A stretch of 39,020 nucleotides of DNA, taken from assembly GCA_049999805.1 (NCBI GenBank), contig JBNGIO010006289.1, positions 102,180-141,199 on the forward strand, in the 5' to 3' direction. The DNA is from Folioceros fuciformis (taxonomy: Eukaryota). Of the stretch, positions 31 to 28,793 are shown one piece after another. The notes under the pieces were generated by a model. It was given only the letters and a program-made list of their open reading frames with translations. It was not told where the DNA came from and did not search any database. Each line of letters begins with the position of its first letter. The stretch's first letter is position 1. The translations under genes and the position numbers were made by a program.

Positions 31-2970
31 TTAGATAAAAGCTGCTTTGACATGTTCTAAAAGGGTCTTGTCATTTGTGGCTAATATTACGTCATCAACA
101 TATAAAGCCAAAATGACGTATGAGGAGCCTTGAGTAAGCATATATATATTGGAATCAGCAGTACTTTGTACAAAGTTAATTTCCAACAAGTAAACATGCA
201 TGGGAAAGTACCATACTCTACCGGATTGCTTGAGGCCATAAATACATTTGAGAAGTAATAAAACTTTGTTGGGGTATTTAGAATCAACATACCCCTCAGG
301 TTGTTGCATATAAAGTTCCTCCTCAAGCTTGCCGTACAAATACGCTGTGCAAACATCCATTTGATGCAGATACAAATCATGTTCCGTTGTCATAGCAAGT
401 AACATCCTAATGGATTGAGATCTAACCACAGGACTGAATGTCTCTTGATAATCTAGGCCTTCAACCTGCGTGAATCCCCTAGCCACGAGTCTAGATTTGT
501 AACGTGCAATCTCTAGAGCCCTTGGAGTTGAGTTTGTGCTTGAAAACCCAATTGCACGAGATGGGTTTCCTACCAGGTGGCAAATCCACTAACTTCCATG
601 TATTATTCTTGATCAAGGACTGATACTCATCCTCAACTGATATACGCCACTTGTCACCATCAGGGCCAGACAAGGCTTGCTTCAAGTTGATTGGCTCATC
701 AGGGATGACAGTAGTGAGTGATGTGGAAGTGTTGCGGAAATCTATAGACTCATAGGGGGGCTCGATCCACTCGGCTCTAGGTAGTCTATGGCGGGTGGAT
801 CTGCGCAACTCGGGCTCTGGTGGAACTTCTACAACTTGTGGCGGTATGACATTTGGCTCTAAAACATGTTCATGGTCATCCTGAAGAGGGTCAGTGGTAC
901 TTGATTAGTGTCCTACTCATCATCATAATCAGCTAATGGAGCTGCTCACTCTACTGACGTGGCCGGTTCACCATGAGCATAGCTAGGTTCAATGAGAGTG
1001 ACACTACGAGCTAAGGTTAGAGAGTGAGTAACTGGATCATAGAGCTTGTATGCCTTGGCAGTCTCGCTATATCCGACGAAAACAAGGCCCTTGGCTCTCA
1101 TGTCAAGCTTCCTCCTCTTTTCGCAAGGAATATAAGCGAATGCCTTCGCTTGAAAAACTCGGAAATGAAGTAGGCTAGGCTTACGCTTCCAAAATACCTC
1201 ATATGGTGTCCTTCCATGCACAGCACTGGTGAGCACCCAATTGAGGATGTACGTTGCAGCAACTATGGCCTCTGCCCAATACCCTTGAGGAAGACCTGCC
1301 CAAAGCAGCATACTCCTCGTCATACCTAGCAAAGTTTGGTTCTTGCGCTTAACAACTCCCTTCTGTTGTTGAGTATAGGGTACACTCAGCTGGCGCTGAA
1401 TGCCATGTTGTGCCAAGTACTCGTCGAAGGCTGCGTTGACAAATTCCGTTCCATTGTCCATGCACAGCATTCTAAGAAGTTGACCCAACTGTCTCTGGGC
1501 AACATGCAACCATTCTTGGAAGCAAGTGAATGTATCACTCTTCAACTGCATAGGAAAGGTCCATGTGTACCTACTATAGTCGTCGGTCAAGCAAAAGTAG
1601 TAACGAGATCCGCCAAGTGAAGCCTCCTATATCTTCTCAGATATATCCGCATGGACAAGCTCCAATACTTGTGATGCCCTATGTGCAGTTGCATTAGGGA
1701 AAGGAGCCTCCTTCTTCTCGGCAAGAATGCATGCTTCGCAGACTGTAAGGTCTTTGAAGCACTTGGGCAAGGGTTCTCGAAAACATTCCTTGTTGGACAT
1801 GTCCACCAGTTTTGCTCGGTTGACGTGTCCTAGGCGAGCATGCCACAAAGCAGCCAGCTTCTTCTGGTCCATGTGGGTACTCCCTGTAGAACATACTGTA
1901 TGAGCACGCTTGCAGTTGATGTTCAGCTTGTACAAGTCGTTGACTACCACCCCTTTGAAAGCACAGATACCAGGTGAATCTGCCTTGCTAAAGGAGCAAG
2001 ACACTTGATCAGCTTGCATAAGAAGAGCGTGCGACTTCAACAGTTTGCTAAGTGACATCAAATTCTTCGCCATCCCTGGGACATACAGTACCCTGTCAAG
2101 GATAAGCTCTGTGTTGTCCGGCAGGATAAGGTACACATCCCACGCCCTCTAATCTACAATCCAGTCTCAGCCCTCTCATCTCCCAACAGCACTTTCTTAG
2201 ATACTTTGAGTAGATGCAGATGTGAAAACTGGTCCTTGTCCATACAAATATGTGTAGCTGCTCCAGAGTCCAGATACCAACTGGTACTATCCCTCGTGGA
2301 GCTCGACAGGCAAACAGTATAAATCTTTACAGTAGATTTATCATGGTCACCTCCAGACTTGCCTTACAGTTCCCTGTCCTTTTAGTGGAAGAAGATCCAG
2401 AGTCATTAGCACGCTGACATAAGCTGCCGACTTTGCTCCTCCTGGTACAATGCGCCAATGACATCCTCCAATGTCCGGGTGCTGGATGTTGTCGCAGCTC
2501 CTGAGGGATGAATTGGGCCATTTTGTGTACTCACAAAATTTTGCTAGGATGGTGGAAGGCTGATCAGCAGTTGGGCAATGGCATCCTCTTCATCCATAGT
2601 AGAACCAAAAGATACCAGGTCCGCGCGTAAATGTCCGGTATATTTTCTCAAGCTGCGCCCAGATCTCGTGAGCCTTGAGCAAATATTCTACATCTGGAAT
2701 TAAAACATCATCCAAACCACTTATGATTAGTGCTACAACAAGTTCGTTGGCTGAAGTCCATTCGTCCAGGAGGGTTTGTTGAGCAGCTGAAAGTGTAGTT
2801 CCTGGGGCTGCTGCGGCTGGCTCCTTGCGGGTCCCATCAACCACAGTCCACACTTTCCTAGCGACAAGAACAGCTCTCATCCGAACACGCCAAATGTGAT
2901 ATTGGTTACCATTAAATCTATCCTTTTCTTTTAATTCAGATATTGAAGAGGGGGCAGATGAGGTAGACAT
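31..2970 (-). pseudogene. Disrupted copia gag-pol polyprotein
   Basis: Five ORF fragments in different frames carry consecutive copia domains. There is a frameshift at ~488 within RT, an in-frame stop at 31-33, and a destroyed protease catalytic motif. Confidence 0.92.
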
Positions 2971-7440: not shown

Positions 7441-7566
7441 GGATTAGGTTGAGTATTGGATTAGTGGTGTAAATTAGGTTATGTCTTGGATTAGTGGTGT
7501 AANNNNNNNNNNGTGGTGTAAATTAGGTTATGTCTTGGATTAGTGGTGTAAATTAGGTTGAGTCTT
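7441..7566. repeat. 30-bp tandem repeat (attaggttatgtcttggattagtggtgtaa) interrupted by an assembly gap
   Basis: Units start at 7443 and 7473 and continue after the N-run at 7503-7512, so the true copy number is unknown. Confidence 0.9.
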
Positions 7567-9349: not shown

Positions 9350-9968
9350 AGAGCTATGCAGCAGGTTATTCGAAATGGCAGACTCTCCCTCGATTTGTTC
9401 CATCGGAATCGCCTACATGCAATGCAGCATGTGGTGCATGGCAGTCACATCCCATCCTAGATCGCGAGCCCCTGCTGAGGTGATGCCACCTCTTCCCGTA
9501 CTGCGCCGAGGTCTGTTTAAGACATGTAAATTTTCACGATAGATGTCCGATGTCCAAATATCGGCGTGGGCTACCCGAGGTGCAGCAAGCATCCTAGAGA
9601 TATGCCCTAAGAGTACATGGGGAGGGTGATGGTGTAGGTCAGGAGGAAACAAGGGGTTGTCTTTTCAAGACATTTTTGCGCTCTTGCGGAGTTGATAAGC
9701 TCAGGACATTTGTGCCCCAGTGGTGTGGTGATGGTCTGCGCCCTAGGTTGGGTACACAGGGCTGATTTTGACGCGTGCTGTTTTCACGAAATATGATAAT
9801 TAAGAGTTCGCTCCTCTCGTGCCGAGAGCGAGGAGCTGCAGAAGTACGGAAGAGTTCCAATTCCATGTCGCCTGACCCCGTCTACTGTGGGATGGGGGCT
9901 GGAGTGGATGGAGCCTGAGGTGTGCGCGTGCGTGCTGTGGAGCCTCCCGCAGCCGGGTGGAAGAATTG

Positions 9969-12092
9969 ATGGGACCTGCTTCCGAGCCGTGTCGCCGCTG
10001 CATCGTGAGGACCGTGCTCGCGTACAGGGTCGCCTTGGTGGTGGCTTTCTTCTTGTGCGCTGCAGCTGTCTCGTGGTTCAAGGGGGGTTGGGAAGCAGCA
10101 GATCGGGCTTCACCTCTGCGTTCGACAGCCGTGAAGAATCCGCAAAACGGGTTTCGTCGCAGGCTGCAGCAGGACTTCGCCGATGGATGGAATGACGCCC
10201 AGGTGGTGGATGATTCCATGGCTTGTCCTGGTTGCACTCCACATGACAAGGATGATGAGCGTCTGCCGGCAGATCTGGTGCCCCCACGTGTGTTGCAGTG
10301 CGCCGAAGTTGGCAGTCAGCTCCCAAAGGACCGGTGTGAGCAGGCGCGGCATTGTAATGGTGCTGGTCGGGGGCTTATAAACTATACGGCGCTGCACTTC
10401 TGTGAACTCCAGGAAGTATCTTGGATTTCGGTACCCCTGCTAATTGCGGGCGTGCTTGTGGCTTTCGTCTTCTTGGCAGAAACTGCTGAGAATTTTTTCT
10501 CCCCAGCTGTATCCTACATGGTTACCGTCATGAGACTGACACCAAGCACCGGGGGTGTTACATTGCTTGCCTTTGGAAACGGCGCTCCTGATCTGTTTGC
10601 ATTACTGGCAGCGATTCAGGGAGGCAATCCGCGAGTTGGCCTAGGGGCAATCCTCAGCGCTGGAACATTTGTGTCCACCTTCGTAGTGGGCTGCGTGGCA
10701 CTGGCAGCTGCCCCATTTTCTGTCGCAGCTTTTCCGTTTGTTAGGGATATTGTTTTCTATGCCGCTGCTGTGTGTTTGCTCTTCGGAGTGTACCTCACTG
10801 GGATTGTCTACTTCTGGGAAGCCGTGGGCCTCATCGTTTTTTATTGTGTGTTTGCGCTGGTAGTTATGGTCACTGATCAAGTCAAGGGTCTGAGAGACGT
10901 GAAGGCTCCCTTCTCTCCTCGGGATGCGTCCAAGAAAAGAAGGGAGTTGATTGAAGACATTGTTGTGGCTTCTGGTAGTCTCCCCTTGTGGGAAGACTCG
11001 CAGTCACCAAACACCAGGAGCCCGGAATTTGACAGGGCCGATAGCTGGTGGGGATCAGGAGGGGTAGGAACCTCAGGCTTGCGGGGCCCTATGTTGGTCA
11101 GCAGAAGAATTTTGGACAAGGTTGTGGCTGGCTATTCTTTCTTGAAGAATTCAGCATACAGTAGCCCTCCCAAGACGATGCTGTCTCCTATGCTACCCAG
11201 CATGCATAAACAGAGCCTTTCGGACTGCTGCGGACAGCCTACATGGAAGGTAATTCCAGTAGTTTTCGTTCAGTGACTACCCGTTTCTTGCCTCGTTTCT
11301 CATCCCCCTAACGCAGGCTGGGATATACTTCTCCTGCAGTTTCGCATGCCAGTGGAGGTGTTGCTCAAGGCCACCATTCCTGTGATCCATCCTTCACTAT
11401 GGAACCGCCATTACGCCACTGCTAACATGGTCCTGTGTCCTCTGGCGCTGCTCTATATGTGCGGCTCCCAGATTCCACTCAATCTGCGCATCAGTCTGAC
11501 TGACACACTTCAGCTTCCTATCTGGGGTCTGGTGGTCATACTGAGCCTCCTGGTGGGAACTGCCTACTATCTGATGTCAGAGGAGCCTCCGGAGAGTCAA
11601 CACCTACTGCCTGCAGCCTTCGCCTTTGCTATGAGTGTAGGCTGGATTTCCTTCATGGCGGGTGAACTGCTGGGCTGCCTTGTGGCTCTGGGCGTCATTT
11701 TAAGAATTCCTTCAGCGTTGCTGGGGATAACCGTCCTAGCGTGGGGCAATTCCATGGGCGATCTGGTTGCGGATGTGGCTGTTGCAAGGAACGGGCAGCC
11801 AGCTTTGGCCATGGCCGGCTGCTTTGCAGGCCCCATGTTCAACATGCTCATAGGCCTAGGAGTAGCCCTGGCCACGGCCACGTCGGAGTCTGTGTCTTCT
11901 GGCTACACACTCCGCGTACATCCCAGCATTCTCATTGCGTTTGGATTCCTTTTCACTGGTCTTCTGGGCTCGCTCGTAGCCATGACGAGGTCTAGGTTTC
12001 AAATCACTCGGTGCTGGGGCCTCACTCTGGTGGCCTGGTACGTCTTGTTCATGGCTGTCAGCATAACAATTGCGTTACAGTTGGGAATGTGA
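9969..12092 (+). CDS. CCX: Cation/calcium exchanger (CCX, CCX5-like), 2 exons (9969-11249, ~11340-12092)
   Basis: Alpha-1 repeat GVTLLAFGNGAPDLF, alpha-2 repeat LGITVLAWGNSMGDL..AGPMFN, an INY..LHFC N-terminal motif and many TM helices. The first ATG is at 9969 (the ORF-track start is GTG). A phase-0 GT..AG intron at 11250-11339 joins the two ORFs. Confidence 0.92.
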
Positions 12093-12570
12093 CCAATTCT
12101 GAGCACAACTTACATATTCAACAAACTCCTTTTCCGGGTCCATGTCCATCTTTATAAAAGAAAAAAAATTAAAGTTTATAAAAGTTTTGCATTGGATTTT
12201 TTTTATGTGATATGCTTGGAGTACATCATATTATGTGTTTTGTGGGCGGTGAGTAAGAATCTTAAAAAAAAAGATATGAATATTGATATTTATATAAAAT
12301 TTTAAAATCATGTTAAATATTGATGTTTTATAGACAATGCGGTAATTAGTAAGCTTGGGCATGCTCATGCTCAAGAACCATGGATTATGTTATCCTTTTG
12401 GATGAAAGGTCATGCACCTCTTTGTAAGAGGTGTGGATGGTAGGATAGAACAAATGTCGTGTATGCTTGAATAAGGAAGGGCCTTAAACACATATGCAAA
12501 GTTTGAATGAAATTCAAAGTCATGCTGAATATTGCTGTTTTACACACGCCAACCATATAGGTAGAATGCT

Positions 12571-12694
12571 TCAAGGTATGATTTTAGATTGAAGACCATG
12601 TACTTGCCTCAACGCATGATTTTGGATTGAAGGCCATGTACGTAACTCAAGGCATGATTTTAGATTGAAGGTCATGTACTTGACCCAAGGCATG
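12571..12694. repeat. 38-bp tandem repeat (~3.3 copies) in the AT-rich intergenic region
   Basis: Units tcaa(g/c)g(t/c)atgatttt(a/g)gattgaag..catgtac.. start at 12571, 12609, 12647 and 12685. Confidence 0.85.
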
Positions 12695-15281
12695 TGGCCC
12701 TCGCATTAATGCATTTGAATTAGGCAATGATGTTGGCCTATACAAATTTTCAAGTTAACACCATAAGCCTATTATCAAGGGAGTTAGTCCATTCAAGATA
12801 TGTGTTGCAAGACAACTGCAAGTATAAGTAGAAGTTAGCTAGAATGTCATTGAAGAGTATGGAATGCATGAAGTTTAATTGTATCAAAGTTAAATAGAGT
12901 TGCAAAGATGCAACCAAACAATCTTGAAGAATGCATGTCATAAAACTAAACGAATTGAAACTAATGTAGTATGAAGCTAGAAAATACAACAACAAGGATC
13001 ATGAAATTCTTGCGTTTGAAATAAATGAGGTCTTTGCTCGGTTTTTCGGGTTTCGTGTAAAATCCTAACTTTTTTTTTTGCTTGATTCAGTATTTTTTTT
13101 TTTAAAGACAAATTTGGAGGTGTTCGCCAATGATTACCTTGGGTTCTCGTAAAAGTGTTTAAGTGTCATACCAAAGGTATAGGGCTGCCATAATTCCAAA
13201 TCGTGTGCATATCAATAGATGAGTAAACTTGTCAAAATGATTTATTCTTGGTATATTTACATTTCCTTGAAAAGCTATGGAATTATTCTTTTGTATCCCA
13301 TTGGATGGGTAGAGTGCATAAGTGCGCATCATATGGAATGTAGTGCCTCTTCCTTCACCTCATTTCTCTCCATCCTTTCCTCTTGTCTTCTAAATTAGAT
13401 TATGGAGGCATTTAAGATGTTGTAGCCACCTTAAATGCCTCTAGAAAGGGGTGATTAAGGGGCTAAGGATTTGAATCCGGTTTCATTATCGTTTTACCTT
13501 CCCCACATTTAGGTTCCTTTAAATCAATGGATTGCTATGTAGAGCTGCAAGTTGGATACCAAGTGGTATTTGCAAGTCCACGTTAAGAACCAATTGTCGC
13601 GTTTGCACTAGGAGGCACAATTTCTTGCTTTGAGCGTGCCCGTGCTCAAAAGTGTTCACCATGGCCCGATTGGCGCTCATAAGTGTGCACCATGACGCAT
13701 TGACGCGCACTTGTGCATGTGATGACCGAGATGGCGAGCACTTGTGTGCGATGATCAAGCTGGAGCGTACAAGTGCGCACCATAAATTGGCTAACACACA
13801 TTTCAAGCATGTAATGGTAAAAAAATCCTAAAATACGACAACTTAATGATTTGGCAAATTAAATGGTTTATATGAAATGGTTTGGAGGAAGATGAAAAGG
13901 GAAAATAAGTGGTAAAGAAGTTGTAATGATTGTAATGATATGCCGTGATATACGATAATATACGATAATTATTCAGGTTTTATTAGTTAATGATTATTCA
14001 CACCACATATCCTGTACCTTATTGTGCATACATTTATTACTACACATTGATGTTAAAAATCTACAAATCATCAAAGTACTTTTTTCCTTTTTGTCTTTGA
14101 CAACTGCATTCATAGTTCTCAGAGCTATAGCTTGGGTTTGCAAATCTACAACCAAGTCATGTGATCTTGCACATGCATACCTTAATGAGATTCTAATGAG
14201 AGTGAAAATACAAGCTTATAGTTGTAGCGATCTTGAGCTAGGTTTTTATGCCTATTACATGAGGCTCGTTAGAAGTAGGTCCACACACCTAGCTTTGTAT
14301 GTACTTCATATTCTATTTTTTTAATGATGATCTTAACTAACTATTGTATTATTTACAACTAATTCTAGTTATTACCATAAATTATTTATTTATTAACTAG
14401 TTTTTGCATGCACCTATCTAATAACATACGATCATGCTTAACAAAGCATGCTAGGTCGGCAGTTGAAAAGTGCTAAACATAAACGTAAACGGCCAAGCTG
14501 CAGATTGAGAGCCAAGAAGAAGGAGGCTTGGGAGGCAATAATGAGCTAGAAGATCTTTATCTGCAAGAAGATAGTAAGGTGTAGAGGTAAGACCAATTTG
14601 CAGTTAGCCACTTCAAAAAGGTGGGTGTGGTTAAGGACACTAGATAGGTGAAAGAAGCCTAAGCCAAAGTTCAAAATAAAAGGTGGTAAATTCAAAGAGA
14701 AAAATAGATAAGGACATAAAACAATTACAAAAGATGTGGGAGCAGCAAAAGGAGGCTTGTACTCTATCCACCTTGAGCTAAGAAAAAGAAAGGAAATCTT
14801 GGCCCCAAATTTTAGTACCAAATAATAGTAATCAAATAACTAAATTGCATGGGTTTGTGTATTAACCCTTTTACAAGTTCATAACATTGGTAAATTATGA
14901 TAGTTAACAGAATAACCAAATTGAATGTATAGAAATCATAGTTATTTTGGAATATCAATGTAAAACATATTCATGCTAATTATACAAAGCTCGACATAAA
15001 GCACCAAATCCCACCAAGTTGAGGCACTTGGTGACATGGGTTTAGGGTTTGCAAGTCAAAAGGTGTCCAAAGCAACCCTTCAATAAACCTAACAAGAACA
15101 TAGAGGCTTGGAATTTTTTTTGTTCCAAGGTTGAGGAATAGAACCATTCCTTGGAGTACCATCGACTTTTCCACTAATTGATAAAAACAATGTAGAAAAC
15201 AATTGTTGCCAGAATACGCGGCAAAACCTTTAATGAGAAGACAGTCATAAGAAACTGCAACTTCAATAACGATAATAATTA

Positions 15282-15431
15282 CTCCCAGAGCTGGGACCAT
15301 CGCTTTGAGCTCCCAGAGCTGGGACCATNNNNNNNNNNCTCCCAGAGCTGGGACCATCGCTTTGAGCTCCCAGAGCTGGGACCATCGCTTTGAGCTCCCA
15401 GAGCTGGGACCATCGCTTTGAGCTCCCAGAC
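15282..15431. repeat. 28-bp perfect tandem repeat (ctcccagagctgggaccatcgctttgag) spanning an assembly gap
   Basis: Identical units lie back to back on both sides of the N-run at 15329-15338. Each contains the hairpin tccca-gagc-tggga. Confidence 0.93.
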
Positions 15432-18700: not shown

Positions 18701-20046
18701 CTCAAACACTGACCTGAACAGCTTTGTCTGCTTGGGACTTGATCTCCTCAAAGTGCTCCTCGTTTAGCGTGACGTCCCCATAGAAGGCATCATAGTAGAA
18801 ACCCTACAAAAGCAACAAAATCACAACCAAATGGCATTGAAATACATCATAATGTAAGCTTAGGTGAGATACGTCATACTACAAGCTTAGGTGAGATACG
18901 TCATACTACAAGCTTAGGAGCGTAAGCCGTTTAGTACAGACGGAAACCCAACCTCAGTTCTCGTTGTACAGGGTCCAATACATAATTTGCAGTCATACAC
19001 AGTCTCCAGTGCCTGCAAAAACACAACTATGTGTACATCAGGATCTCCCACAATACCGATGCAGAAAAAGAAAGCAACAGACTGCGAAAAGATAGGAAAG
19101 ACCACACAGGCATTATACAGCAAACGACCTGCCCAAGGATGTGAGCACTGGAATGCCAAAACGTGTCTCGCCCTTCTTTGTCCTCGAAAGTAAATATTTT
19201 AAGCTGACAATCTCCCTCCAAGGGTCTGCCCAGGTCCCAAAGGACACCATCAACCTGGCGCAGCACATGTCAGAACTTGTCAACCAAATGGCTTCGCATT
19301 ATTTCTCGCAGAAAAAAGAGCCAGCGAGTAAAATGACAACGGTGTTCCAGTAGCAGAGAACTGATTAAACCTCCGAAATGAGAGCAGCTGTAGCCAGCTG
19401 TTTGGAAATCTGCTTGGCAATGTCGAGGGGCGAAGTGCGCCACTTAATCCCATCTCTCACGGAACCATCAGGAAGTGTGATTCTACAAGGCGGCACATTC
19501 CCTACAAGCTGTCAGGAGCCAATCCAGAGACCTACAAGATAACACACAGCACAAAAAGAGAAGCACGTACTTGATCGCGTCCCCCGCAATTTCATTCAAC
19601 CGTTCCTGACCAATACGCTGGATCTCCTCAAATTTGGAGATCCTCTTCTTTTGAATTTCGCTCAACTGTCCTGCTGGTTCACCAGGTCCTTTGCCCGACT
19701 TGGAGACCCTCTTCTTTCTAGTCTTGCTCACATCCGGTCCTGCTGCTGTCCCAAGTCCTTCGCCGCAGGTCCCGGAGATCGGGACTTGTGATTGAAGGAG
19801 GTTTTGTTCTGCTACTTCACCGGACTTGGAGATGTTTCCAATCTTATCTCCCATTGGGAACCCTCCTGCTTTCTCAGGTCCTTCGCCAGACTTAGAGATC
19901 TTCTTTCCAATCTCCTTCACGGCTACGGAACCTGAGAAAGCATCTGCTTTATCAACAGTGACGGGCCCAGCAGCTCCGTTCGCCCTTGGAGACACAATTG
20001 AAGCAATTTCGTCGGGCGCCGAATGGGCAGCTCCATTGGCCGCCAT
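15720..20046 (-). CDS. ThrRS: Threonyl-tRNA synthetase (eukaryotic cytosolic type), multi-exon
   Basis: Spliced exons give TGS ([17 protein letters not shown]), [91 protein letters not shown] and the anticodon domain ending AETAAFH* (stop 15720-15722). The start is taken as the first in-frame ATG at 20046. An upstream exon is possible. Confidence 0.96.
18856..18918. repeat. 27-bp tandem duplication within a ThrRS intron
   Basis: aagcttaggtgagatacgtcatactac occurs at 18856 and 18883, with a partial copy at 18910. Confidence 0.85.
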
Positions 20047-20526: not shown

Positions 20527-23295
20527 ATGCCAGACAGTCGAATTTTGTACCATCCCAAGCGCTCAAGCAGCCTGGTCCGAATGACAACTCCGTATTCTAT
20601 GGATCCCACCCCTACAGTTGCCCGTCACCCAACAGGTACGTATTGTCTAATGCCAGCACAAGGCAGCAAACGCTCTTGTGGAAAGATTTTTGGTTCACAT
20701 CCAACACATTGCCAGGACCTTAGGCAAGGAAAGACAGCTTCGCTGCATCTTGACTTCAGGCACAAGAGGTCTGAGCAGGGACTATGGCTTGACCACAGGC
20801 CTGCTTGGGTTGATTCCGATCTGCCCGTGTGGAATTGGCAGCTTCAAATTGGGGATAAGGGGACCAGAAAGGTTGAAGAGTTGCGCCGAGTGTGCAAGGA
20901 GGGGCCAGTAGCTGAGGCTGTGGCAGCGTTGGATATCCTGTTGGAGCAAGAATGTTCTGTGGGCGTCTCCCTCTTTTATCTCGTGCTCAAGAGATGCATT
21001 GCACATAGTAATCTCATTCTTGGAAGACGAGTACATGATCTTATTGTGAAAGGCGGGTGCGAAGGAAATGGCTTTTTGTCCAACCATATTGTTCGGATGT
21101 ATTCGTCGCATGGAAGGCTGCAGGAAGCAGTGCAGGTGTTCAGGAAAGTAACTTCGCCCCAGATTTTTATCTGGTGTTCGATCATATCAGCACATGCTGC
21201 GCATGGACAGCCTGCGCAGGCCGTGCACCTATATCGACAGATGCGGCAATCGAGTGTCAAGCCAAACAGCTATGTCTTTGTGGCTGTTCTCAAGGCCTGC
21301 GGTATCGCAATGGACTTGGAGTCTGGGAAGGAGGTTCATACGGATATTCTGAGGAGTGGAGTTGAGGCGATTGATGTGTTTGTTGGCTGCAGCCTGGTTG
21401 ACATGTATGCAAAATGCGGGAGCTTAGAGGATGCTCGGAGAGTGTTTGACTCTTTGTGCACAAAAAATGTCGTCACGTGGACTGCTATGATAGCAGGATA
21501 CTCTCAGCATGGCTTCTGCGAGGAAGCCCTTGACCTGTATGCCCGTATGGAACAGGGAGGTATGGCTCCTGCCGACCATGTTACATTCTTGTGCTTACTG
21601 AAAGCTTGTGCCAGCACAGGGTCTTTGCAGCAGGGGAAGCATCTGCATGCACAGATTCAGGAAAGAGGTCTGGAAATCATCATGGTTGTTGCCAACTGCC
21701 TGGTGGACATGTACGCCAAATGTGGAAGCTTAGCGGATGCTCGCAGAGCATTTGACATGTTGCCGAAGAGGGATGTGGTGACTTGGAACACGATGATCGC
21801 AGGATATGCACAACAGGGATTCGGTCAAGAAGCATTAACCCTCTACGCCTGCCTGGAAAAGGAGTTGACAACTGTAGCCGATCAGGTTACATTCATCTGC
21901 GTCCTACAAGCATGTGGAAGCCTTGGGGCTTTCCATCAGGGTAAGCGTATTCATTCACAAATTCGAGACAGGGGACTTGAAAAACATCTCGTAGTTGGGA
22001 ATGCACTCATTGACATGTATGCAAAATGTGGAAGCCCAGAGGATGCTCAACAGGTGTTTGAGAGTCTGCCAACCAGGGATGTGGTGACATGGACAGCCAT
22101 GCTTTCAGCATATGCTCATGAAGGGCTCGCTCAAAGGGCCCTGAATCTGTATGCTGAAATGCAGCGGGAGGGGATAAGTCCAGTCAATCACATCACATTT
22201 GTTTGCCTCCTGCAAGCCTGTGCCAGTGTCGGAGCTTTCAATCAGGGTAAGCAGCTACATGCACAGATTCAGGATAAAGGACTTGAAGGCAATGTGGTTG
22301 TCGCTAACGCCCTGGTGGACATGTATGTCAAATGTGGGAGCTTAGAAGAGGCCCGGAATGTGTTCATCCGACAGCCCACAAAAGACGTGGTAACATGGAC
22401 TGCTTTGCTCAATGGATATGCCCAGCACACTAATGCCTGGATGGCAATGCAGTGCTTTGAGCGGATGCTTCTGCAAGGTGTGACACCCAATGGCGCTACT
22501 TTCATTTCTCTTCTTGTCGCATGCAGTCATGAAGGCCTGGTGAAGGAAGGCGTGAAATATTTCAGGACGATGGAGGAGCATGGTGTTGTTCCCACTGATC
22601 GTCATTACAATTGCATGGTTGATCTCTTCGCAAGGTCAGGCCACCTAGAAGAGGCAGAAAGTTTGCTGCAAATTATGCCATTCAAGAATTCTCTTGTGGG
22701 ATGGACATCTTTACTGAGTGCAGTAAAGAACCATGGAGATGTGGAGCGCGGCGAGCGATGCTTTGACGTCCTTGTCACCCTAGAACCGGAAAGTGCGTCG
22801 GCGTATGCCATGATGGCCAATCTTTATGCAAATGCTGGCAGGTGGAGAGATGTAGGTAGAATAGAAGCCTTGAGAAAGTGTGCAGGTGCTTGGAAGAAGC
22901 CTGCAAAGGCGTGCATCGAAGTGGAGAGTAAGGTGCACGAGTTCACAGTAGGAGAAAGCAGTGGTGATATCTCAGAAAAGTTGAGAATCATGAATTCACA
23001 GCTGAGGAATGGGGGCCATGTCCCACAAACGGAGCTGGTACTAAAACGTTTGTCTGAGACAGAAAAGGAAGATGCACTGTGTGGGCATGCCGAGAAACTT
23101 GCATTGGCCTATGGTCTTCTGAATACATCAGATGGTACAACTCTTATAGTTACGAAGAATCTTCGAATGTGCAGTGACTGTCACAGCAGCACTAAAGTTA
23201 TGTCACGTCTCGAGAAGCGGGAAATCATAGTTAGAGACGCACACCGCGTGCACCGTTTCCAGGATGGAATTTGCTCTTGCGGTGATCGTCATTGA
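20527..23295 (+). CDS. PLS-class PPR protein with E1/E2 and a DYW:KP-type deaminase domain ending in DRH (organellar RNA-editing factor), single exon, 922 aa
   Basis: 17 PPR motifs (L-S-(P-L-S)4-P2-L2-S2) are followed by E1/E2. The C-terminal domain has KKPAKACIEV, HAEKLA, KNLRMCSDCH, RDAHRVHRFQDGICSCG and terminal DRH*. The exact start ATG is uncertain. Confidence 0.96.
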   Translation: MPDSRILYHPKRSSSLVRMTTPYSMDPTPTVARHPTGTYCLMPAQGSKRSCGKIFGSHPTHCQDLRQGKTASLHLDFRHKRSEQGLWLDHRPAWVDSDLPVWNWQLQIGDKGTRKVEELRRVCKEGPVAEAVAALDILLEQECSVGVSLFYLVLKRCIAHSNLILGRRVHDLIVKGGCEGNGFLSNHIVRMYSSHGRLQEAVQVFRKVTSPQIFIWCSIISAHAAHGQPAQAVHLYRQMRQSSVKPNSYVFVAVLKACGIAMDLESGKEVHTDILRSGVEAIDVFVGCSLVDMYAKCGSLEDARRVFDSLCTKNVVTWTAMIAGYSQHGFCEEALDLYARMEQGGMAPADHVTFLCLLKACASTGSLQQGKHLHAQIQERGLEIIMVVANCLVDMYAKCGSLADARRAFDMLPKRDVVTWNTMIAGYAQQGFGQEALTLYACLEKELTTVADQVTFICVLQACGSLGAFHQGKRIHSQIRDRGLEKHLVVGNALIDMYAKCGSPEDAQQVFESLPTRDVVTWTAMLSAYAHEGLAQRALNLYAEMQREGISPVNHITFVCLLQACASVGAFNQGKQLHAQIQDKGLEGNVVVANALVDMYVKCGSLEEARNVFIRQPTKDVVTWTALLNGYAQHTNAWMAMQCFERMLLQGVTPNGATFISLLVACSHEGLVKEGVKYFRTMEEHGVVPTDRHYNCMVDLFARSGHLEEAESLLQIMPFKNSLVGWTSLLSAVKNHGDVERGERCFDVLVTLEPESASAYAMMANLYANAGRWRDVGRIEALRKCAGAWKKPAKACIEVESKVHEFTVGESSGDISEKLRIMNSQLRNGGHVPQTELVLKRLSETEKEDALCGHAEKLALAYGLLNTSDGTTLIVTKNLRMCSDCHSSTKVMSRLEKREIIVRDAHRVHRFQDGICSCGDRH

Positions 23296-25261: not shown

Positions 25262-28200
25262 ATGCCGATCAAGTGTACTCCTCTTGGTAATATGGTTGTG
25301 TGATTTCTAAAGGGGGAATCACTTGCAGGTGATTGAAGGCTTTGGAAATAAGGGGTCGCAATGATCGGTAGCTCACAATTTGTTTCTCCGGACAGGTGCT
25401 GGCCAGGATGTTGGAAAGAGTTGCGTAGTGGTCAACCTTGGGGGTAAGACGGTTATGTTTGACTGTGGAGTGCACATGGGCTATCAGGATGAAAGGCGAT
25501 ATCCTGACTTCTCAATGATCACAAAAAGTGGCAACTACACCCAGGCCATCGACTGCGTCATAGTGACTCACTTGTAATTCTCTTTGCTCAGCTGGCTGCG
25601 CTCACAGGAAATATTACCTGTCAGCAACTACGTCTTTTCGCTCTTGAAGTGAATGTCGGAGTTCGAATTTTGAACCTTATGTTCTGTGGGCAGCCATTTG
25701 GATCACATTGGAGCTCTCCCTTATTTCACCGAAGTTTGTGGATATGAAGGTCCTGTCTACATGACTGTATGTGCTGCCTCCAGTTACCTGAATGCTGATA
25801 AAAACCTATGGAACGATGCTGTTGATCCTCCATGCCGATTCCCGCCTGGTTGCAGTATCCCACAAAAGCGTTGGCACCTTTAATGCTCGAGGATTACAGG
25901 AAGGTCATGGTCGACAGGAAAGGGGAACAGGAACAATTTAGTGCTTTCCAAATTCAGCAGTGCATCAAAAAAGGTGTCTGATTTTTCATAGTTTCTTTTT
26001 CCGTTGTCTTGTATTGGTGCGGTAGTTCTCTTGCATTGTCCACACAAAGAAAGAAACTTCCAAGTTCCTTATGCGAGAGTCGGGTTGTTTTCCGTCTTCA
26101 GTTATTCCTGTGGATTTGAGGCAGACAGTCACTATTGATGAAGGTTTTGAGCTTCGAGGTTACTATGCTGGGCATGTAAGGGTCTGCAGCCTTGAAGCAG
26201 CTGAATTTTATCGCTTCTGGTATGTGTTAGTACATTCAGATGTGCCAACGTCTATCTCTGCCGTGATCAGGTTCTCGGAGCTGCCATGTTCTATGTCAGG
26301 GCAGGAGATGAGACAGTTGTCTACACAGGAGACTACAACATGACACCTGACCGCCATCTCGGAGCTGCTCAGATTGATCGGCTGAGGCCAGATCTACTCA
26401 TCACTGAGTTTGTATTCTCTCAACCATGTCATGAGCAACCTCTGTCGTGATGGCACGTGACTTCTGAAAATGTTGTGCCTTCATTTTTTGTTTCAAAGTG
26501 GAGGACTTGAACATCTTCGCCTTATGGCTTTCAGATCTACATACGCTACAACAATACGTGACTCAAAGCTTGCTCGTGAAAGAGACTTTCTAAAAGCGGT
26601 TAGCTTGAAGACAAGCTGCATTTGCTTATTTGTGGCATGTTTGTCCACGTGGCTACTTAGCCCTTGTATGACACCACTAACTTCCAATGCAATAGGTCCA
26701 TAGCTGCATCAGTGCCGGTGGCAAAGTTCTTATTCCTGTGTTTGCTCTTGGGAGAGCTCAGGTCGGCATCTTGTTTCTGATGTTTGCACACATGTTGAAA
26801 TGTTAACTTAAGTACAGCTTAGGATCATGATTATGCTTGGACAGGAGCTCTGTATACTGTTGGATGAATATTGGGAGCGCACCAATCTCAAAGCTCCTAT
26901 CTACTTCTCGGCAGGTAACATTAACCCGGTTTTCTTATATCTCATCACCTATGCCAGAGATATTATGTCAAGCAGTTTCCCTTATGAGAGGACGTGCAGG
27001 ACTGACAATGCAAGCCAACGTGTACTATAAGCTCTTGATAAGCTGGACGAACCAAAAGGTGAAGGACACTTACGTGACGAGAAATACTTTTGACTTCAAA
27101 CATGGTAGGTTTTCTATGGCTCTTGAATTTGTTTCGCAAATCTTATCCGGATGCTGATCATTCATTATACTTGTGAAATTTCAGTTTCACCATTTGAACG
27201 ATCCCAAATAGATGCCCCAGGGCCATGTGTTTTGTTCGCAACGCCTGGTATGCTCAGTGGTGGACTGTCACTTGAAGTATTTAAGCATTGGGCACCATCT
27301 GAGCTAAACATGATTATACTACCTGGGTTTCTCTCTCACCCTATGACCGCTCACGCAATTTTTCAGCGCATGGACTTGGTTGTTTTCTACAGTGGAACTT
27401 TTCTCAATATCTGCTGTGTCCTGCAATGTAAATATGCAGGTTCTGTGTGGCTGGGACAGTGGGATATAAATTGATGTCTGGGAAACCAACTAGAATTGAC
27501 CTGGACAAGCGAACTCAGTTAGACGTCCGTTGTCAGGTGCGACAGATGCACTATGTGATCGGTTTTACAGGGAGTTGGAAAGCTGGACTCATGTCTGTTT
27601 TGTTGGGATTTCTGTATTTTTTATGTGAATACCAGGTGAATCATCTGTCCTTCAGTGCCCACACTGATGCTAAAGGCATTATGGATTTAGCGAAGCATGT
27701 GGCTCCAAGACACGTGGTTCTGGTTCATGGTGAGAAGCCTAAAATGGTGTCACTGAAAGGCCGCATCATTACGGAGTTGAACATCCCGTGCTATGACCCT
27801 GCCAACCACGAGACAATCAACATACCGCCTTGCGATTCTATTAAGGTCAGCATTTCGAAGCAGTTTTTGTTGGAAGCCACTGCGTCACCGGTTCCAGCAC
27901 ACCAGCACGTGTATGGGCCATTGCCCGAGTCTGGGAAGAGAGAAAGAGCTCAGTCTGAGACCTTGCCACCTGTTCAGAATAAGATAGCAGTGGAAGGGCT
28001 GTTGGTGAGTGATTCCAACTCATGGAAACAGGTGTTGCACCCAACGGAAGTAGCAGGTGCTTTGGGTTTGGAACAACATAGGCTACGCTACAGTTCTCTT
28101 TGCCCAATCTATCTGTGTCCTGAAAATGAGACAGACGTGGACGAACAATTGCCGGCGGTGGACAGGCCGATGGAAGTTTCTGAGTTTCCTCGGAGGATGT

Positions 28201-28793
28201 ATGAACCTTCTACGACAATTCAGAATCTGTCGTCGGATAAAGAAGCAAAACCGGAACCAGAACAGAAAAGGTCCAAGAAGAATTTACAGAGAGTGCTAAG
28301 CCTTGACCTAGAGCGATTGCCCGAAGCCGAGGAAGGGGATGATATATGCTTGGACCTGGAAAGGGCTCCTTCTGAACAGAGTGAGCAACGGTCCGGTAGT
28401 TTGGGCGCAGCACACAGTCGAGGAAGCTCCTCAAATGTAAGGATAGATCTGGATATCAACGTGGTTCCAGATTTGACTCTGATGGACTGCAGCCCCAGGT
28501 CAAGCGACAGCCCAGAAATATCGTCGTCTTCTATCTTGCATGGTGTATATCTAGCCCTTGCCAAGTGGATGGGCCATCAGGTCACGGAACAAATCGACAG
28601 CGTAAAGGGTGGGCGGACTTTATCAATTCGTATATCGCCCCAGCCTATTTCAGATTCCGGCCTGGATGTACCAGGAAGGTCGGATTCCAGCAAACCCATT
28701 GCTATTGTGGAGTGCACATGGGAAGAGGAAGATGATCATTTGGCTCAACGAGCGGTATCCATATTACATGGCTTGAAATTCAAGCCGGAGTAG
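25262..28793 (+). CDS. INTS11: Integrator subunit 11 / CPSF73-II (MBL beta-CASP endonuclease), multi-exon
   Basis: Spliced exons give [40 protein letters not shown] (HxHxDH), [55 protein letters not shown] and LVHGE. The long last exon ends at TAG 28791-28793. Confidence 0.95.

Follow-up and report, generated by a model that had tools for sequence, protein, structure and literature searches.

A native, intronless gene for a DRH-type DYW:KP pentatricopeptide repeat protein, a candidate U-to-C RNA-editing factor, on a Folioceros fuciformis contig

Pentatricopeptide repeat (PPR) proteins ending in a deaminase-like domain of the DYW:KP subclass are limited to hornworts, lycophytes and ferns (PMC13386178; here and below, papers are cited for the sections drawn on). 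Those of hornworts fall into two subgroups, DRH and GRP, and designer proteins have been built on each, KP1 on the DRH and KP2 and KP3 on the GRP consensus; U-to-C editing was obtained, in E. coli or HEK293T cells, only with KP2, KP3 and the fern-based KP6, the GRP-based designers editing U to C only and KP6 editing C to U as well in human cells (PMC9478123). The initial annotation of the DNA examined here had taken the subclass to be confined to these lineages and designer proteins to be capable of U-to-C editing, and the literature agrees with it on both points. The stretch in question, termed the window, is 39,020 nucleotides (nt) of Folioceros fuciformis contig JBNGIO010006289.1 (positions 102,180 to 141,199). 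It contains what we judge, with a probability of about 0.95 on the evidence of its sequence, to be an intact native gene for a PPR editing factor of the DYW:KP/DRH kind. Most likely it belongs to the nuclear genome of a hornwort-like land plant, has no introns and encodes an organelle-targeted, site-specific factor with a PLS-type PPR tract and a DYW:KP domain. As to direction, we lean towards editing of U to C.

The ORF list and translation show a single uninterrupted, intronless open reading frame (ORF) of 922 codons closed by TGA, with a stop codon in frame 6 nt 5' of the first ATG (20527). Compared as a whole with Pfam, the protein matches PPR families (E 1.5e-82), the E motif (E_motif PF20431, amino acids (aa) 736-797) and DYW_deaminase (E 9e-36); the DYW domain alone matches DYW_deaminase (PF14432) at E 3.7e-37. 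Divided at the lengths canonical for each motif, the protein shows first a degenerate P motif (aa 112-146), next five L1-S1-P1 triplets and then L1-S1-P2-L2-S2, E1 and E2, the motif lengths being 35/36, 35/36 and 31/32 and regular up to E2. Tandem P-L-S triplets that end in P2-L2-S2 and lead into E1 and E2 are what defines a PLS-class PPR editing factor. Residues 1-60 include 2 acidic, 8 basic and 15 Ser+Thr residues, a composition that fits an organellar presequence, and a targeting role is presumed from it; the true translation start could be Met1, 19, 25 or 42. The six-frame translation of the window holds no second DYW domain. The description of the gene as a full-length native candidate is thus borne out: PPR tract, E1, E2 and DYW domain lie in one unbroken frame.

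The domain itself begins KPAKACIEV, joins VHEFTVG straight to ESSG, contains HAEKLA and CSDCH, and terminates in CSCGDRH. Each of the motifs first picked out by the model reader, KPAKA, HAEKLA, GHVP, the zinc motifs HxE and CxxC and the terminal DRH, is found in its place in the translation, and the SHP segment said to be missing after VHEFTVG corresponds to a 4-residue gap after VHEFTVGE in HMMER alignments with the PG-type domains 9kfx and 7o4e. With all these elements found and a Pfam match at E 3.7e-37, the observation is not a chance match. The length is 132 aa, against 136 aa for PG-type domains in our sample; published DYW:KP domains measure 132-133 aa and lack xHP (PMC11845758, PMC9478123), and HAE is specific to KP (PMC9478123). 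The domain has the deaminase fold and the two zinc sites, HxE...CxxC and H...H...CxC, that mark a member of the DYW deaminase superfamily; the KPAxA box, HAE, the length without xHP, the active-site lysine and the placement in trees described below mark it as DYW:KP. None of the four marks of a canonical DYW:PG domain, PG box, HSE, xHP segment and terminal DYW, is present. The active-site lysine is kept in PG domains too, and so is necessary for the KP class but not diagnostic of it.

In an alignment of 60 sequences, H64, E66, A69, K87, C92, C95, H96, H119, F121 and C128 are invariant, and K87 is kept in every one of the KP groups compared. An AlphaFold2 model of the domain built on this alignment has a mean predicted local distance difference test score (pLDDT) of 90.1 and a predicted template modelling score (pTM) of 0.84. 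A Foldseek search with the model returned 9kfx at a template modelling (TM) score of 0.93 and a root-mean-square deviation of 1.4 A, then 7w86 (0.81) and 7o4e/7o4f (0.79), with only distant deaminases below these; by sequence as well, the nearest solved chains are the synthetic PPR-DYW protein 9kfx (E 3.3e-39), DYW1 7w86 and OTP86 7o4e. As modelled, the domain has the fold of DYW domains and both of their zinc sites. The window domain resembles these DYW:PG deaminases in fold (TM 0.79-0.93), zinc ligands, glutamate and lysine, and differs from them in having KPAKA for the PG box, HAE for HSE, Met for Val before CxxC, no xHP segment, and DRH for DYW.

Relatives were sought with two queries. The last 223 residues matched 126 proteins at E <= 1e-3 among 1180 candidates, the best at 73% identity; many of the top matches end in CSCGDRH or GGRP, KP-like matches come from Diphasiastrum, Ceratopteris and Adiantum, and angiosperm PG/DYW proteins appear lower down. 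An exhaustive representative search with the domain gave 2549 proteins at E <= 1e-3, 46 of them at E <= 1e-30, with a best identity of 77%. From 263 proteins we kept 245 near-full domains, leaving out 18 partial ones. A quick maximum-likelihood tree of the 245 places the window domain in a set of 76 rows, the smallest with good support to include it (Shimodaira-Hasegawa approximate likelihood-ratio test, SH-aLRT, 97), and every KPA box and every HAE among the 245 falls within this set. Features were then tallied per column on both sides of this branch, 76 KP rows against 169 others. Lys at box position 1 is found in 65/76 KP rows and 3/169 others, Ala at position 3 in 61/76 and 12/169 (Gly there in 14/76 and 146/169), and Ala at position 5 in 67/76 and 0/169. 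HAE occurs in 46 KP rows and none of the others, HSE in 11/76 against 163/169; Met precedes CxxC in 61/76 against 25/169, Val standing there in 106 of the 169. Domains of 133 aa or less make up 48/76 KP rows and 5/169 others, those of 135-138 aa 18/76 and 160/169. Terminal DRH is confined to KP rows (10/76 against 0/169), and terminal [DGN][YF]W is seen in 3/76 against 152/169.

Some KP relatives depart from the common pattern. P0023 has an 18-residue insertion exactly at the xHP site of PG domains, and P0030, a 136-aa HAE domain, retains a longer segment there, which makes this site an indel hotspot inside the KP clade. P0012 has two further residues beyond DRH.

A more careful tree of 104 rows combined 74 KP rows, all of the 76 but the long branches P0054 and P0115, with 30 PG rows drawn at random from the unique PG rows, P0118 excluded; the DYW WW clade has no representative in the sample. 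The split between KP and PG has an ultrafast bootstrap of 95, from a bootstrap not fully settled (correlation 0.964), and an SH-aLRT of 94. Within KP, a 42-row set (99/81) holds only HAE or HVE, and Met91. The 10 DRH rows and the 4 GRP rows all belong to a 22-row set (100/92); every named KP row from a fern or lycophyte falls outside this hornwort-type group. The four GRP rows form a clade of their own inside it (100/97); the window domain stands outside that clade, in a 13-row DRH-type group (89/91, not a starred branch) where its nearest neighbours are P0003 and P0009, the latter 80-81% identical to it. Placement in a DYW phylogeny had been proposed as a check on the initial annotation, and it puts the domain in the KP clade and not with canonical PG domains; motif and phylogeny (76-row set, KP and PG split) concur on the DYW:KP subclass, of the DRH kind.

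The two hornwort subgroups can be told apart residue by residue. The ten DRH rows, the window domain included, and the four GRP rows have eleven states in common: K1, A3, A5, G63, A65, K87, M91, V112, A115, V118 and R131. Four others are confined to DRH, C6, K100, D130 and H132, each in 10/10 DRH rows and all present in the window domain; their GRP counterparts are G6, G130 and P132 in 4/4 rows, and E, Q or T at position 100. In published work the Asp is described as conserved except in GRP proteins, whose partner lysine is glutamate (PMC9478123), and the contrast in our rows between D130 with K100 and G130 with an E-like residue agrees with this. Terminal DRH with Asp130 and Lys100, and a position among DRH rows outside the GRP clade, assign the window domain to the DRH subgroup. 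It resembles that subgroup also in its length of 132-133 aa without xHP, and resembles KP1 in KPAxA, HAE and the Met before CxxC, a likeness judged by described features rather than by alignment to the KP1 sequence (PMC9478123, summarising Gerke et al. 2020 and Ichinose et al. 2022). Unlike KP1, which is a consensus C-terminus on a designer tract with no editing detected in the sections drawn on, it is a native sequence with an 18-motif tract of its own.

How far the protein can be taken for a working U-to-C editor depends on the readings that compete with this one. That it is an ordinary DYW:PG cytidine deaminase, its odd motifs being lineage noise, is hardly credible: fold and zinc motifs do match those of solved PG-type domains, but a starred branch parts the window domain from the 169 PG-type rows, as does the 95/94 branch of the careful tree, none of those rows has HAE, a KPA box or DRH, and the 4-residue xHP segment is absent. 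Canonical DYW:PG identity is ruled out by both trees. That the DRH-type domain edits C to U, or both ways as fern designer KP6 does in human cells, is rather unlikely, and the evidence here cuts both ways. The KP6 variants E64G, L113V and F133H edit C to U only (PMC11845758), and the equivalent states, G63, V112 and H132, are all present in the window domain, when positions are mapped by numbering and the one-residue indel site and not by direct alignment to KP6. The one-residue offset in numbering comes from an indel that follows Gly19 in the comparison with fern rows of 133 aa; the correspondence of Met91 here to M92 in the numbering of PMC11845758 is consistent with it. G63 and V112 are found in 4/4 GRP rows, and GRP-based designers edit U to C only, so that by themselves these two are no argument for C-to-U editing; the terminal His, unlike them, is DRH-specific (10/10 DRH rows, with Pro in 4/4 GRP rows). 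By the same numbering all five states that raised U-to-C editing by KP6 are present (C6, T17, E46, A115, V118); the window domain is like KP6 (PMC11845758) in its essential lysine and in having the KP6u states C6, A115 and V118 natively, and unlike it in also having all three KP6c states, G63, V112 and the terminal His. Lys87, Ala65 and Met91 are kept. KP1, the DRH-consensus designer, is not among the three active designers (PMC9478123), which may be held in favour of C-to-U editing in that it lacks U-to-C activity, and against it in that it lacks C-to-U activity as well. Finally, canonical DYW domains are reported to be very few in Anthoceros agrestis, a plant in which C-to-U editing is nonetheless abundant (PMC12548569, citing Gutmann et al. 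2020), and this scarcity makes DRH domains possible C-to-U or bidirectional editors; the same paper records that hornwort C-to-U editing is ascribed to DYW domains acting in trans. The broader idea that DRH-type domains are the missing C-to-U or bidirectional editors of hornworts, or else turnover-competent aminases that resolve the lysine-RNA crosslink, would be a long shot.

The remaining alternative is a paralogue that is silent, having arisen by recent dispersed duplication and lacking expression, or one whose protein is catalytically idle, doing no more than bind RNA or depending on a partner in trans for the reaction. PPR genes number 1,583-2,308 in hornwort genomes, and many are intronless copies, dispersed by duplication, with long terminal repeat (LTR) elements flanking them (PMC13386178), and an intronless gene with a copia-type fragment 18 kb upstream fits that picture. 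A search with the PPR tract (residues 110-700) found no orthologue with the same tract, the best identities being 52% (P0016) and 51% (P0013) in a ranking dominated by long multi-repeat PPR proteins; several N-terminal PPR motifs have pairs of fifth and last residues outside the code (V/G, N/Q, C/N, C/N); and the inactivity of KP1 points the same way. We nevertheless consider idleness unlikely, since the 2766 nt of open frame show no stop or frameshift, the zinc ligands, Glu66 and Lys87 are all intact, motif lengths are regular through E2, and no poly(A) remnant such as would mark a recent retrocopy lies downstream (within 665 nt of the ORF there is no run of at least six A or T, and the first 605 nt lack any AATAAA-type signal). 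The facts that tell against a native U-to-C editor are the three C-to-U-only states, the DRH-specific terminal His among them, the reliance of the KP6 comparison on numbering, the failure of KP1, and the want of an orthologue with the same tract. The direction of editing by DRH variants had been called unsettled at the outset, and with KP1 inactive that assessment stands; the chemistry had been called unsettled too, and is less open than that, an active-site lysine having been implicated (PMC11332814, PMC11845758).

Taking the protein as a U-to-C editor, its mode of action can be sketched. The N-terminal ~110 residues would direct it to plastid or mitochondrion, and the 18 PPR motifs with E1 and E2 would bind RNA just 5' of the target, one motif per base. 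In the code for P and S motifs, T or S with N specifies A, T or S with D specifies G, N with D specifies U, and N with S specifies C. The register places L2, S2 and E1 opposite nucleotides -5, -4 and -3 (PMC9478123). The upstream element predicted in this way reads G(-15), U(-13), U(-12), U(-10), A(-9), U(-7), A(-6) and C(-4), with S2 opposite -4. Binding would put the target pyrimidine in the zinc site formed by His64, Cys92 and Cys95 with Glu66; in designer proteins, mutation of HAE to HAA or of CxxC to AxxA abolishes activity (PMC9478123). Lys87 might then attack the uridine at C4, forming a covalent intermediate that the native system would resolve to cytidine. Its counterpart, the conserved lysine of designer domains (Lys88 in 133-aa domains), is required for U-to-C editing, and has been implicated both as the nucleophile that forms a covalent crosslink with the RNA and as the donor of nitrogen; synthetic KP enzymes stall at the crosslink, and edited RNAs in a fern are not crosslinked (PMC11332814, PMC11845758).

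Positions of the gene, the elements of its product and the neighbouring features are collected in Table 1.

Table 1. Features of the window (coordinates in the 39,020-nt stretch).
Feature	Position	Strand	Basis or detail
PLS-class PPR protein with E1, E2, DYW:KP	20527..23295	+	ORF, Pfam PPR/E_motif/DYW_deaminase
N-terminal 111 residues ahead of first PPR-like motif; presumed organellar targeting sequence	20527..20859	+	residue composition
PPR tract, 18 motifs	20860..22692	+	motif table, Pfam PPR families
E1 PPR-like motif	22693-22794 (aa 723-756)	+	Pfam E_motif, motif table
E2 PPR-like motif	22795-22896 (aa 757-790)	+	Pfam E_motif, motif table
DYW:KP deaminase-like domain, 132 aa, DRH subgroup	22897..23292 (from aa 791)	+	PF14432, PDB matches, AlphaFold2, Foldseek, trees
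KPAKA box replacing PG box	22897..22911 (aa 791-795)	+	translation
Cys6 directly after KPAKA, typical of DRH rows	22912-22914	+	translation, row comparison
G19-E20 junction, site of absent xHP segment	22951..22956	+	HMMER alignments, MAFFT columns
GHVP	23014-23025	+	translation
HAE(KLA): zinc-ligand His64, KP-specific Ala65, catalytic Glu66	23086..23094	+	translation, alignment
Lys87, counterpart of Lys88 in 133-aa designer domains	23155..23157	+	alignment invariance
CSDC (CxxC), zinc ligands Cys92 and Cys95, after KP-typical Met91	23170..23181	+	alignment
Terminal Asp-Arg-His, then TGA	23284..23292 and 23293-23295	+	translation
Ty1/copia-type retroelement fragment	31-2136	-	runs off window start
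 RVT_2	31-486	-	
 integrase core and SH3-like	946-1590	-	
 GAG-pre-integrase	1627-2136	-	
10-base N runs, probably assembly gaps	7503-7512 and 15329-15338		
DNAJC11-like gene, intact single ORF, 562 aa	7661-9349	+	DnaJ, DNAJC11 beta-barrel, C-terminal domain
Two successive ORFs (439, 248 aa)	9957-12092	+	Na_Ca_ex domain in each
AT-rich trough	12000-15000		GC 0.36-0.37
Short ORF, weak TGS-domain match	19027-19266	-	E 0.0056, under Pfam cut-off
GCK-domain protein, 310 aa	23959-24891	-	convergent with PPR gene
Metallo-beta-lactamase/RMMBL RNA-processing nuclease exons (CPSF73- or INTS11-like)	25380-28793	+	long low-complexity C-terminal ORF

The domains of the copia-type fragment lie in three separate ORFs, so that its polyprotein frame is broken. 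The DNAJC11-like protein is 79% identical to its best match, 63-65% to those of Marchantia, Calypogeia, Riccia, Sphagnum and Physcomitrium, 57-59% to those of Diphasiastrum and Selaginella, 51% to that of Adiantum and about 49-54% to those of seed plants. Such values fit a bryophyte-grade genome without a close relative among the named mosses and liverworts and, taken with the published limits of the DYW:KP class, suggest a hornwort. Some 70 nt separate the two Na_Ca_ex ORFs, which probably represent a pair of exons from a single cation/calcium exchanger gene. The AT-rich trough, against a GC content of 0.45-0.55 elsewhere, holds no ORF of 150 aa or more. The ORF with the weak TGS match may be one exon of a gene resembling threonyl-tRNA synthetase and oriented divergently from the PPR gene, and the GCK protein on the other side of the PPR gene has an acidic N-terminal half in which a unit of about 35 residues, DDTDIV(R/K)LEAAH...GEEAEA, is directly repeated.

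Published hornwort genomes contain full-length DYW:KP genes in abundance, and in this respect the candidate is not special: it is one more native member of a large family already described, and brings no new concept. Its interest lies in what has been assayed. Our literature search, by titles and abstract openings, found no functionally characterised native DYW:KP protein, and a review of December 2025, in the sections drawn on, credits U-to-C activity to designer proteins only. The 2024-2025 papers, as far as drawn on here, likewise assayed for U-to-C editing only consensus-designed DYW:KP proteins, which stall at the covalent intermediate. A complete gene such as this, native and carrying its own RNA-binding tract along with the DYW:KP domain, is a reagent for asking how the U-to-C reaction is completed in vivo, and one that would serve equally for the question of whether the DRH subgroup edits at all.

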